This document shows, piece by piece, positions 2 to 8,720 of a DNA stretch of 64,000 bases (position 1 is the first letter of the stretch; the number at the start of each line of letters is the position of its first letter). Origin of the DNA: Wickerhamiella versatilis (lineage: Eukaryota); contig JAQOWU010000003.1 in assembly GCA_030867685.1 (NCBI GenBank), positions 124,001 to 188,000 of the forward strand, given 5' to 3'. Made by a program: the position numbers and the translations under genes. Below the pieces are notes generated by a model. The model made no database searches. It worked only from the letters and a program-made list of their open reading frames with translations, and was not told where the DNA came from.

Positions 2-148
2 CTTTTGACTTGCTTGACTGAGGAACAGGCTTTAGTGCGAGCAGGACTGGTACCAAATGGGCACAATCACGGAGAAGATTGGGGAGCAGCTGCTGTCGAA
101 ATGGCTATTAAGGCCAAGGAGGCAGGTAGAAAGGGTGATATTTTCTAA
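2..148 (+). CDS. RIB4: 6,7-dimethyl-8-ribityllumazine synthase, C-terminal part (gene starts upstream of window)
   Basis: Frame from nt 2 reads [51 protein letters not shown] at 146-148; matches the fungal Rib4 C-terminal motif LLTCxTEEQAxxRAG...[14 protein letters not shown]. Not in the ORF track. Confidence 0.93.
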
Positions 149-1694
149 GCGGACTATATAGCTTCTTAAGCGTAGACTATGTACTCATTCAGTGTGATTT
201 TCAACAAAGGGATTTAAGAATTTATCTGCTTGAAAGGACTTGCAACGTGCACCAGCTCAACACTGGCATAGGCCGATTTCGGCACAGATTTCAGGTTAGG
301 TCTCACAAATGAACCGCTTCCCCTCATTACATATACAAACATATGCTCCCGTTCATGTAATCTAAGAACCTCGAGGCTGAATTATTCGAGTTACGATCCC
401 AGTATACTAAGAGAAGAAATATGTTTTTATTCTATACGGCTGTAACTCTTGAATAAGTAATTGCATATTATACTTATTAATACAATCTCGATAATCAATA
501 GGCCAAAAAAGGTCTACCTAGCCATCAGACTGAAAAATAAATACATACCTAGAATTTCTACAGATATTAACTTATTGTGTCACCGAACGTTAGGCGCAAC
601 GTCGCCTTTTCAACTGGGGCCCTCTTCTGCTGCGGAGCGAACAGTCCCCTCCCTTCAAGATGTGCTGCCAGCTTCTTAAAGAATACGTTATTGACACATG
701 TCATTCAAGGAGATTTAAAAGGATTATGAAAATGTATTTGCCTATTATATCTTGAATAACGCGCTTCTTTGATATCATAAATAGAACGGGATCTGGCTCG
801 ATGCCCACCTTGTGTTAGTAATTATACCTGGCGATGTAAGCGTATTTGCCCTTGCACATTTACTCTTGAGTCTTCTCTATCGATCTGAACTTCCAATATT
901 TTCGTCCATGGTGAGGTATCTTTTCTCCCCTCGAGACTTCATAGGGCTCAGCAAAGTGTGGGGCAAGAAAGTTCTAGAACTTACTCTTTTGAGAAAATCG
1001 GATATTTAATATTTTGGTAGTAAGCACGGAAGTACCGGCGATGGGCACCCCAAACCATCTTTGGGAGAAGGGTAAGGGTGTCGTGCTTGACAAGTGAGTG
1101 GGCTATGTATACGTGGGGAAAAGGAAAGGAGATCGGCATACGTGGTAATTTTGAAAACGGGTCCTGAGTTATTTCCGTAATTTTTTGTACCGGAACATCA
1201 GAAACAAGGAATTTTTCAGGTGAAAATCGATATGTAGGATCATGGCAGCTATTTCAGAGTGGCACTACTGGACCAAGACATATTCGATTTCAAAAAAGTC
1301 GTTTTGCCCGTTGTTTCCGGGAGGCCTACTCAGTTTGCCTTCAAACTACATCAAGTCACTGATCTTAGATCTTGCATCTGTGATCGATCTTCTAGTTAGT
1401 AACGCAATTTTTTTTCCTTACCGAATGCGACAGCAATGCGATTACTAACAAGTAACGCACATAACTGGTGGAGATTTCGGGTATTCAAAGGCTTGCCAAC
1501 GAAGACTAGGATCAGAAACACATTGAATATTTGGTAATAAATGTTTCATACTAGTCAATGCCACCCAGAAAAGAAGTTCAAAGACCTTGAAATGGCCATG
1601 TCTAGAAAAGTATATTTTGATTGTTGTTACCAATAGATTACACATCGAGGCTCTGCAAGCTATATATTACCGCAATCTACCCAATCAAAGACAT

Positions 1695-5992: not shown

Positions 5993-6611
5993 TTTCGTGA
6001 TGTTAAGAAATTGGTTGGACGATTTTCGGCGGTTTTTATTTATGCATTACTTTGTCATATATTGCTAATAATGCATATGGGGAAGGAGGCGCACATCTGT
6101 CGGCATAGTCGGATTTTCAGCTGAACGCGTCATCATCAGTATGATTTAGATCGACACAAAGCCCAAACACTTGAATATATCCACTAATGAGCTATTTATT
6201 TGTAGGAAGACGGAGCTAGTTACTCGGAATAAGCAGGAAATATTTTTTGTGGTAATCGTTATTCGGTAGCGAATGAAAATACTACTTAGATTGCGGTGTC
6301 TGAGCCATATTACCTCGTTTACTGTTAAAAAAGTTTTGTAAGGTTTTTTGAAAGTTGTAAGTCCGTTCACTAGAAATTTGTAGGGGGCACCAAGAGTTGC
6401 CGTAAATACGTTCAGACAAAATGGAAGACTACTTATTCTGCTACTATGCTGCTGTTAATCCTCACCAAGAAGGCCTTACTAGCAGAATTGACTACTTGCA
6501 TTATAAGTGATCGATCGCCTAATTTTAGAGATATGATCAGTCAGATAAACATTATAAGGGCCGGCTTGATTTCTTCAGTGAAATCATTAGTCCCAGGGTT
6601 ATTGGCTGAAC

Positions 6612-8720
6612 CTACATAGTAAATGACTCGTCAAAGAATTGAACATAATTTTTTGTGTGCGGTATTCCACCAGCCACTGCTCTACGCACATCATCTGATA
6701 GACCACCTGGTCCGCATACAAAGAATGCTATTGATCCTTGGGAATTCCGGATATGTTCATCCACAATATCACTCATTCTTGGTCTTTCAAACTTCTTTTC
6801 ATAGGTGAGATCTTTCCCTGCCCGTGAATATTCATTATACACGGGTTGTTCATCGAACTTTTCTTCATACACCTGCTGTTGATCAGAAAAAGATGATTCA
6901 TCACTTGAATCCATTTGATCTGTAATATATGTTTTTACAATTATATTTGGATGTTCGATGGCAAACAACTTAAGCTGTTTTGCAAACCATTTCAATGGAT
7001 TTCCATCTCGGATGACCCAGTGTAAGTGCAGGACCTGATCCCGTTCTTGCTTTGCGATATGACTGGCATAGGTTTGGCAAGCGGTTATGCCAATACCTCC
7101 GGCAATTAGTACAACCTCACGGTAGGGTCTTGAGTCAAATTCAATTCCATAGGGCCCATCAATCCACACGTACCAGTTATACTTCTGATGCCCACTTATA
7201 ACTTTGGTAAGTCCATTCCGCGTCTGAGCAAAAATTTTTAGTGTCTTCGAATCTTTCTCTTCTTCGGGTGGCTCCATAACTGTAAAAGGATGGCTCTGCC
7301 AAAAATAAAGTGGGCAAACGAAATGAACAAAGACATGCTGGCCAGGTCTTGGCTTCCATAGCCCCGAGTATTTTATTGTAAGTTCAGTTACACCGTCGTG
7401 AGATGTAATGTCTGCTCGTGACAATGGACCAGAGAGAATTATGCGAGCTATTCTGGCAGCTCCATCAAATGCCCACAATGCTACGACGGCGTAAATGAGC
7501 TTTTGACCTTCCCCTACCCATTTCAAATGGTACCAAGTAGCTACTACCATTCCAACTGCAAGCAGGACATGGATCACAACAAATGCCTCGTAGGACTTTT
7601 CACGAAGAAACTTGACAGCTTGAATCAACATGCATCCCATAAAAACAAGTGACAATACACCTGGGGCCCAGTACTTGTAAGCCGGCTCACTCCAAACAGC
7701 ACTTAGACTCGTCATATAAACATTCTTAACCATGATACTGTAGGCAATCGCGTGAACGATAATCAGAAGAACTACCAACCTGGCAAGATTTCTGTGGAAA
7801 TGGTTCCATATTTCGAAAGACCAACCAGTTAGGTAGATCAGTACATTATTGCGCCCTGCAGTCACGAATACTATAGGGAGAAGATATATGGCCAAGTACC
7901 CTGAACGGAGACCTATAGCAGAGGTAACCAGCTGGGATTGTGAATAACTACCATAAGGGCTTAACTGGACATGATAATCCACAGATAGGAATATCAAGAC
8001 TATGGCCCAGTAGCCAAAAATTACTAGTGTAATCATGCGGCGGGGCAGGACCCAACGGACAAAAGGTACCGGATTCGCGGCACGACCGTTGAATAATGCA
8101 GGAATACCTACATATTCTCTGAAAATTCTCACACCACGGCTGTTGAACAGCAGCATGGAAACCGAGGGAACTAGCCACGCGAACCAATACAAACACATTT
8201 GCAGAAGGACAACTCCAAAAAAGTATCCCAAGGTAGCCATGGAATAATAATAGCTAGCAAATGTCGTGCGATGGTACGCAATTCCCGCTTTGATGACGTT
8301 TCCTTCGTCCATCATCTCCAGCGGAATACTAAAAGGCTCGGGCTTGGCTGTGCTATTCGCCTCTGTGTAATTCGTAGTAATAGGATTGTGATGAGCATTT
8401 TCCCTGTACGTTTTATAATTAGGAATATCTGAAATGCCGAAACTACCACAGTACGCCATTAGTTGACTCCAACTCTCTCTAACGGCTCCTTCACCGACGC
8501 CACTGGAATTACTTGCTGTTTCAATGCAGTTATAAACAGTTTCGAGCCACCAATCAGTTCCACAGTAGCATTCATAAGGCGTACTTTCCCCCTTCATAGG
8601 ACATACGCCTTGAACAGCTGCGTTTGCTCCAATCATTTTAGTGCAGAGCGAAAAATAGTAGTCCGGAACATACGCTGCAGCAAACGTTACTACAGCTGTC
8701 AGTGTGTATATCACCTTCAT
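6612..8720 (-). CDS. FRE-family ferric/cupric reductase
   Basis: Likely ATG 8720 (MKVIYTLTAVVTFAAA signal); Cys-rich N-terminal domain; heme His pairs (FHRNLARLVVLLIIVH, IHVLLAVGMVVATWYH); HPFT, DGPYG, AGGIGIT, CGPGGL, FFDESF motifs. Confidence 0.94.
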   Translation of the reverse strand: MKVIYTLTAVVTFAAAYVPDYYFSLCTKMIGANAAVQGVCPMKGESTPYECYCGTDWWLETVYNCIETASNSSGVGEGAVRESWSQLMAYCGSFGISDIPNYKTYRENAHHNPITTNYTEANSTAKPEPFSIPLEMMDEGNVIKAGIAYHRTTFASYYYSMATLGYFFGVVLLQMCLYWFAWLVPSVSMLLFNSRGVRIFREYVGIPALFNGRAANPVPFVRWVLPRRMITLVIFGYWAIVLIFLSVDYHVQLSPYGSYSQSQLVTSAIGLRSGYLAIYLLPIVFVTAGRNNVLIYLTGWSFEIWNHFHRNLARLVVLLIIVHAIAYSIMVKNVYMTSLSAVWSEPAYKYWAPGVLSLVFMGCMLIQAVKFLREKSYEAFVVIHVLLAVGMVVATWYHLKWVGEGQKLIYAVVALWAFDGAARIARIILSGPLSRADITSHDGVTELTIKYSGLWKPRPGQHVFVHFVCPLYFWQSHPFTVMEPPEEEKDSKTLKIFAQTRNGLTKVISGHQKYNWYVWIDGPYGIEFDSRPYREVVLIAGGIGITACQTYASHIAKQERDQVLHLHWVIRDGNPLKWFAKQLKLFAIEHPNIIVKTYITDQMDSSDESSFSDQQQVYEEKFDEQPVYNEYSRAGKDLTYEKKFERPRMSDIVDEHIRNSQGSIAFFVCGPGGLSDDVRRAVAGGIPHTKNYVQFFDESFTM

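Follow-up and report, generated by a model that had tools for sequence, protein, structure and literature searches.

Why do genes of riboflavin synthesis stand next to genes of extracellular iron redox chemistry in a budding yeast? The question is raised by 64 kb of Wickerhamiella versatilis DNA (GenBank assembly GCA_030867685.1, contig JAQOWU010000003.1, positions 124,001 to 188,000 of the forward strand), called the window below. Its 5' end carries RIB4, a Fet3-family multicopper oxidase gene, RIB1, RIB3 and a metalloreductase gene of the FRE type; RIB4 is cut by the window edge and the DNA upstream of it lies outside. For decades, iron-starved yeasts have been known to release riboflavin. 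Metabolic gene clusters of yeasts and the link between iron and riboflavin are likewise established, and the linkage of RIB and iron genes is what appears to be new here. The preferred explanation is a lineage-restricted flavin–iron module, assembled in a eukaryote, a budding yeast of the Dipodascales type. It is held tentatively, at a little below even probability.

Five genes at the edge of the window

The first-pass annotation had read five consecutive genes in the order RIB4, multicopper oxidase, RIB1, RIB3 and ferric reductase. Pfam profiles and matches to solved structures recovered all five at the positions in Table 1. The first 8.7 kb hold these genes and no further ones between them: in the intergenic spacers below position 9836, none of nine stop-to-stop frames of at least 70 amino acids had a Pfam match, and the same was true for all 36 such frames in the spacers of the whole window. 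The search for RNA elements gave no Rfam match at gathering score and no tRNA.

The RIB4 tail covers positions 104–135 of the 139 in the DMRL_synthase profile. Its score of 26.5 bits is just below the cut-off of 26.7 because the window edge cuts the gene. Among solved structures, it matches yeast lumazine synthase 1ejb best (residues 124–163 of 168, E 7.6e-13), which leaves little doubt about the predicted identity, judged on the C-terminal 48 residues in the window. Rib1 has the zinc-binding C...CxC motif, aligned with RibA 2bz0 and RibBA 4i14. Rib3 covers DHBP_synthase profile positions 2–191 of 191 and can be aligned over its whole length with 1tks from Candida (E 4e-80). By these alignments, the catalytic regions of Rib1 and Rib3 match solved enzymes in full and their motifs are intact. 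In the FRE protein, the Ferric_reduct, FAD_binding_8 and NAD_binding_6 domains each scored above the Pfam cut-off. Its translation shows the reductase motifs HPFTV, GPYG and CGPGG.

The arrangement may have arisen by neutral juxtaposition. The sole RIB1, RIB3 and RIB4 of the genome would then have been relocated by rearrangement and passed on to close relatives, and oxidase and reductase would be ordinary mobile members of iron families without any tie to them. This is rather unlikely. RIB4, RIB1 and RIB3 are non-homologous genes of one pathway and lie together inside 6 kb. By our own arithmetic, which assumes about 6000 genes in the genome, any three of the six RIB genes would fall into five consecutive genes with a probability of approximately 20 x 36/6000^2, or about 2e-5 per genome. 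A chance origin is still less likely because both remaining genes of the run encode iron-redox proteins.

A full-text search of the literature turned up no account of clustered fungal RIB genes or of a linkage between RIB and iron genes, in agreement with the first-pass annotation, which knew of none. Neither is described in the available portions of two riboflavin reviews (PMC12542839, PMC13028884) and a review of Saccharomycotina traits (PMC10833146). The available text of the latter includes pulcherrimin and ferrichrome among its iron-related small-molecule stories.

A Fet3-family oxidase without membrane anchor

The oxidase carries a signal peptide and the domains Cu-oxidase_3, Cu-oxidase and Cu-oxidase_2 (Pfam, E 3e-33 to 1e-47). 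Among solved structures it is closest to Fet3 (1zpu, E 6e-132), of which the ectodomain alone is aligned, chain residues 3–532 of 534. In Fet3p, the residues E185, D283, D409 and Y354 specify the oxidation of Fe(II), according to the accessible part of PMC9880977. In the 1zpu alignment, the equivalents of all four are identical in the window oxidase. The positions were counted by hand as chain number plus 21 and cross-checked on the T1 ligand H413.

The oxidase stops directly before the point where the membrane anchor of Fet3 would start. Within the last 140 residues, the best 19-residue hydropathy window reaches 0.72, versus 2.29–2.69 in nine anchored Fet3 homologues. A hidden anchor exon downstream was ruled out, as none is encoded in 3381–3730. 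Three orthologues without anchor have the same end point: P0241 (98% identical), P0242 (82%) and P0243 (76%). In a tree of 35 rows, these three and the window oxidase form a clade with a support of 100, sister to the anchored Fet3 proteins. Since the four members of this anchorless clade end alike, the oxidase is a conserved soluble derivative of Fet3 and no truncation artefact. Its sequence suggests that it is probably a soluble secreted ferroxidase. The label 'Fet3-like' of the first-pass annotation thus holds for the catalytic domain, with its ectodomain match and its four ferroxidase residues, and fails for the membrane anchor. P0243, an enzyme of 571 amino acids, comes from a third species, in which its longest contig has 35,368 bases.

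Two known systems resemble this enzyme. The Fre – Fet3/Ftr1 uptake of Saccharomyces cerevisiae likewise has an FRE flavocytochrome and a Fet3-family oxidase with the four ferroxidase residues. The window oxidase differs by the lack of the transmembrane anchor, which is a trait of its clade. An FTR1 permease gene was not found in the 64 kb, and the reductive iron-uptake genes named by the first-pass annotation do not make up a canonical uptake set. The second system comprises MCO1 of Phanerochaete chrysosporium and the basidiomycete laccase-ferroxidases. These are also secreted, anchorless multicopper oxidases with ferroxidase determinants, as far as the available text of PMC9880977 goes. According to the same text, equivalents of D283 and Y354 occur in 0 of 34 laccase-ferroxidases, whereas the window oxidase has the full four and falls within the yeast Fet3 proteins in its tree.

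Descent, linkage and evolutionary rate

The homology tables comprised the best 120 matches per gene, with the longest carrying contig given for each protein cluster. RIB1, RIB3 and the oxidase have their nearest relatives among proteins of yeasts and other fungi, and the named top matches of RIB1 and RIB3 are all fungal. For these two, the nearest named relatives belong to the Dipodascales (Trichomonascus/Blastobotrys vanleenenianus, Nadsonia, Yarrowia) and the Lipomycetaceae. Trees were built from the best 41 matches for RIB1 and the best 40 for RIB3, together with named ones picked from the 120 each. In these trees of 62 and 59 rows, respectively, the window proteins are nested in yeast clades. 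The RIB genes are monofunctional, without fused ribBA or ribD, and are spread over both strands. On these grounds, import of a bacterial rib operon was rejected, and the fungal type that the first-pass annotation had assigned to the RIB genes was upheld. Bacteria offer a functional parallel. In Helicobacter and Campylobacter, riboflavin genes are under iron control and extracellular Fe(III) reduction is raised by riboflavin (PMC6041382, available part). That axis, with Fur-controlled ribBA and rib operons, consists of prokaryotic operons, whereas the window genes are monocistronic and of fungal descent.

Contigs of equal size served as a proxy for linkage. P0002 (RIB1, 66% identical), P0122 (RIB3, 74%) and P0242 (oxidase, 82%) all have a longest contig of 64,646 bases, two contigs and one common source. 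P0001 (RIB1, 97%) and the oxidase P0241 have a common longest contig of 1,348,231 bases. Beyond these two sizes, no further contig match was seen by eye across the top rows of the three tables. Nine yeasts were matched by name in both the RIB1 and the RIB3 table, and in eight of them the two genes lie on contigs of different size (B. vanleenenianus, Lipomyces kononenkoae, L. japonicus, L. arxii, Myxozyma melibiosi, Dipodascopsis tothii, Limtongia smithiae and [Candida] anglica). Nothing can be read from the ninth, Tortispora, where one 3.1 Mb scaffold carries both. Linkage of RIB1, RIB3 and the oxidase gene appears, by this proxy, to extend to at least one further species without being general.

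RIB1 has changed faster than its relatives. Over a core of 278 ungapped columns, the window protein and P0002 are 60–67% identical to 13 other RIB1 proteins, and 63–67% to the twelve that belong to the yeast clade. The 13 comparison proteins are 66–90% identical to each other, and 73–90% among the ten nearest. With P0014 as the outgroup, all 18 Tajima relative-rate tests were significant (p < 0.005), with 37–47 unique changes on the cluster branch versus 10–20 on the other branch. The more distant outgroup P0046 gave p < 0.05 in 16 of 18 tests, and control pairs of ordinary RIB1 proteins in one of four. These sequence comparisons indicate an approximately threefold faster evolution of RIB1 than in its nearest relatives, in both the window lineage and that of P0002.

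RIB3 has an N-terminal extension of about 45 residues which is homologous to that of P0122: the alignment score is 68 versus 22 +/- 4.4 for shuffled sequences, and none of 2000 shuffles reached 68. A fast RIB1 and a conserved, lineage-specific RIB3 extension would be compatible with specialised copies, such as the dedicated second RIB set that the first-pass annotation had considered possible. We infer, with somewhat better than even confidence, that the window RIB1 is a paralogue, that is, a second copy. An N-terminal 'SPxFTP' motif was considered as a canonical Rib1 marker and dropped as non-discriminating, since 85 of the 120 matches carry it.

The rate and the extension also bear on neutral juxtaposition. 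An essential gene present once would not usually keep up an acceleration of about threefold in both lineages, the extra segment of RIB3 is conserved, and two more iron-linked genes lie nearby. In favour of juxtaposition, Rib1 and Rib3 look fully functional by their motifs, the linkage was seen in one narrow lineage only, and no second RIB copy of the same species was identified among the best 120 matches listed. The contig figures of these tables are uneven: the cluster of the window's own RIB3 has a longest contig of just 2349 bases. The normal rate of RIB3 and the promoters, both treated below, also fit it.

Several results weigh against the module. FTR1, RIB2, RIB5 and RIB7 had no family match among the open reading frames (ORFs) and spacer frames scanned in the window. 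With RIB2, RIB5 and RIB7 missing from the 64 kb, the cluster by itself cannot make riboflavin. The oxidase is without the anchor by which Fet3 usually cooperates with Ftr1, and the window has no gene for this partner. A rate change of RIB3 was detected in 0 of 12 relative-rate tests. The linkage shared by two related species can be plain inherited synteny, and it was read from equal contig size as a proxy. For the third species, no cluster-type RIB1 or RIB3 with the contig size of P0243, 35,368 bases, was among the best 120 matches each. The soluble oxidase may therefore predate or outlive the RIB linkage. Finally, the promoters gave no sign of joint control. Patterns of the GATA/Sfu1, Aft, CCAAT, Sef1-like and Mac1 types were no denser in the cluster region (positions 1–9835) than in the window. 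ATCWGATAA was not present in the cluster region; CWGATAA occurred there three times of 26 in the window, TGCACCC in none of four cases, and CCAAT at 2.2 per kb versus 3.0 per kb window-wide. For the Sef1-like site, the two forms TCCGAA and CGGATCCG were absent from the cluster region and occurred 18 times and once in the window, respectively. A comparison of k-mers between the four cluster promoters and 21 kb of other spacers yielded only A/T-rich or singleton words: no 9-mer was common to at least three of the four promoters, and shared 7- and 8-mers were mostly A/T-rich. The regulator in this distant order may differ, which makes this a weak test. This weak negative is the main gap in the argument for the module, and it fits neutral juxtaposition.

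To our knowledge, the RIB genes of flavinogenic yeasts are dispersed. Candida famata, Meyerozyma guilliermondii and Debaryomyces hansenii, with their Sef1 regulon, are the closest physiological counterpart of the proposed module: they tie RIB genes, and RIB1 above all, to iron scarcity (PMC12501418; PMC8955749; both in their available parts). Riboflavin is overproduced on iron starvation and the RIB1 promoter is the most responsive to Sef1, according to the available text of PMC12501418, which was also the source of the Sef1-like site. The literature examined, available in part, makes no mention of RIB linkage in these yeasts, whereas the window cluster joins three RIB genes physically to iron-redox genes. 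The cluster promoters differ from the Sef1 regulon in that the published Sef1-like site was not found in them, and the window yeast belongs to another order, the Dipodascales by its nearest named relatives.

Proposed function and wider neighbourhood

If the locus is a flavin–iron module, it would join Rib1 at the entry of the GTP branch, Rib3 at the entry of the ribulose-5-phosphate branch and Rib4, where the branches meet, to two extracellular iron-redox proteins. Iron scarcity would switch on the cluster genes jointly and increase the flux to riboflavin or to its lumazine precursor. The flavin may serve the flavin adenine dinucleotide (FAD)-dependent reductase, leave the cell as a soluble carrier of electrons to Fe(III), or do both. 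Control of the Fe(II) that arises in the cell wall space would fall to the soluble ferroxidase, either by handing it over to a permease encoded elsewhere or by protecting the cell from Fe(II) chemistry. What the sequences show is the anatomy of the locus, its descent, its derived features and the linkage by proxy. Regulation, flavin secretion and iron phenotype are inferred from the physiology of flavinogenic yeasts (PMC12501418; PMC8955749) and from bacterial precedent (PMC6041382), each as given in the available text.

Table 1. Genes of the riboflavin–iron locus and its downstream neighbours in the window (positions 1–64,000)
Feature	Position	Strand	Basis
RIB4 (6,7-dimethyl-8-ribityllumazine synthase), 3' end, last 48 codons	2..148	+	Pfam DMRL_synthase, 1ejb
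Fet3-family multicopper oxidase, 572 aa, secreted, anchorless	1692..3410	+	three Cu-oxidase domains, 1zpu
RIB1, GTP cyclohydrolase II	3723..4727	-	Pfam GTP_cyclohydro2, E 2e-52
RIB3, DHBP synthase	5240..5992	-	Pfam DHBP_synthase, E 1e-79
FRE-type transmembrane metalloreductase (flavocytochrome)	6612..8720	-	Ferric_reduct, FAD_binding_8, NAD_binding_6
ABCB exporter, Ste6 type, one in-frame TGA	9836..13783	+	best solved match 7qkr
YncE-type secreted seven-bladed beta-propeller, 375 residues	16592..17719	+	AlphaFold2 model, Foldseek
Ferroportin (SLC40/FPN1) family membrane protein	19217..20488	+	Pfam FPN1, E 5e-82

Seven genes within 20.5 kb are either iron-linked (four) or RIB genes (three). Among the downstream neighbours, the ABCB gene adjoins FRE across a divergent spacer of 1.1 kb. 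It encodes a full-size and otherwise intact transporter and consists of two frames in one phase, split by a single in-frame TGA at 13082–13084. This stop replaces what we take to be a conserved Arg of the family, before the second Walker A region. It marks a pseudogene or a nonsense allele specific to the strain, or else stems from an error in sequencing. Among solved structures, the a-factor exporter 7qkr matches best (E 1.5e-290, versus about 1e-250 for ABCB1), and the gene may simply be the STE6 orthologue. A role as a dedicated flavin exporter was considered and is doubtful on both counts, and membership of the ABCB gene in the flavin–iron module is doubtful as well.

The exporter also figures in another reading, in which the locus is a secondary-metabolite cluster for a lumazine- or flavin-derived pigment or redox compound. 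Rib1, Rib3 and Rib4 would supply dimethylribityllumazine, the oxidase would tailor or couple it, and the ABCB protein would export the product. The gene set ends at lumazine synthase and RIB5 was not found in the window, the oxidase is secreted and anchorless, RIB1 is fast-evolving, and the ABCB and FRE genes have a common divergent promoter region. Against these points stand the affinity of the exporter to Ste6 and its in-frame stop, and the four Fet3 residues that determine Fe(II) oxidation are all present in the oxidase. RIB5 may sit in the DNA before the window or at some other place in the genome, and no further tailoring enzyme adjoins. A metabolite cluster is very unlikely on this evidence.

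The YncE-like propeller was modelled with AlphaFold2 from a 16-row alignment (mean pLDDT 85.9). The best Foldseek matches were the E. coli YncE structures 7seu and 3vgz (E 1.7e-20, TM-score 0.85, 21% identity). YncE of E. coli is Fur-regulated and secreted (PMC5120174, available part). The look-alikes in the Atlas were all bacterial. In bacterial and archaeal genomes, 261 pattern matches to the family were obtained, of which 247 were confirmed by tblastn at 31–40% identity. For the first 40 of 80 kept loci, up to three flanking ORFs each were scanned, 118 in total. A neighbour of siderophore type was present at 30 of the 40 bacterial loci and a strict transport family at 20, with many loci from Stenotrophomonas and hence not independent. 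Siderophore type was defined as a periplasmic binding protein of the Peripla_BP_2 type, FecCD, a TonB receptor, a PF00756 esterase or modules resembling nonribosomal peptide synthetases. The ten loci without such a neighbour were L001, L003, L006, L020, L023, L024, L025, L030, L032 and L034. One probable yeast relative, P0362, has 51% identity. The family looks mainly bacterial, and the window gene is a candidate for horizontal transfer into this yeast lineage.

The ferroportin-like protein matches solved SLC40A1 structures (E 1e-28), and its gene lies 16 kb from that of the soluble oxidase. It is possible that the YncE-like and ferroportin-like genes belong to the same wider iron neighbourhood as the cluster. 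The pair of ferroxidase and transporter invites a third alternative, a unit for iron efflux or redox buffering. Soluble ferroxidase and ferroportin-like exporter would act as ceruloplasmin and ferroportin do in mammals, and the RIB genes would merely supply FAD for the reductase. The presence of both genes in one window agrees with it, and the pairing of a ferroxidase with a transporter for efflux is established in mammals (PMC11817551, in its available part). The two genes are separated by four others, however, and iron transport by the yeast FPN1-like protein is a prediction from family assignment. A ferric reductase and extra riboflavin synthesis fit iron scarcity better than iron excess. 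An efflux unit is highly improbable in this balance.

The flavin–iron module also has a bolder version, a 'flavin–iron island'. Dedicated, fast-evolving RIB copies would feed a secreted flavin shuttle, the FRE reductase would charge the shuttle, and the anchor-free soluble ferroxidase would work with them. Beside them would stand a propeller of the siderophore-locus type, probably acquired by horizontal transfer, and the ferroportin-like transporter. In this full form the proposal is unlikely.

The rest of the window encodes transporters, catabolic enzymes and zinc-cluster regulators. Two genes of Zn2Cys6 fungal transcription factors lie in tandem at 47067–48878 (+) and 49081–51069 (+), about 40 kb from the cluster, and a third, weak match to this factor type is at 60729–62504. 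A secreted protein of 185 residues without Pfam family is encoded twice, at 35189–35746 (+) and 58023–58580 (+), 22.8 kb apart. The copies share 183 of 185 residues, and the DNA repeat 35178–35477 / 58012–58311 is 96% identical over 300 nt. A 173-residue ORF at 22507–23028 has motifs in common with this pair, as judged by eye. A putative ORF of 122 residues with a signal-peptide-like start and no family is located between the ABCB and YncE-like genes (14111–14479, -).

Lineage-restricted clusters for iron acquisition have precedents in the Saccharomycotina: the PUL cluster for pulcherrimin and the bacterial enterobactin operon in the Wickerhamiella/Starmerella clade (PMC10833146; 10.1101/399394; both in their available parts). 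Those clusters make chelators, whereas the window cluster consists of primary-pathway genes for a vitamin and of redox enzymes, and no chelator synthetase is included. If it is a module, it would add a new type of content, primary vitamin-pathway genes together with redox enzymes, to the few gene clusters known from budding yeasts. With the anchorless Fet3 clade, a textbook enzyme gains a new form. For riboflavin overproduction, the natural promoters and the enzyme variants of the locus are of applied interest. The cluster may bear on why some yeasts release riboflavin under iron starvation: with flux-controlling RIB genes joined in nature to the genes of a ferric reductase and a probable secreted ferroxidase, this question becomes directly testable at one locus. 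If true, the flavin–iron island would be the first case in which the genome of a fungus embodies extracellular iron redox cycling mediated by flavins.

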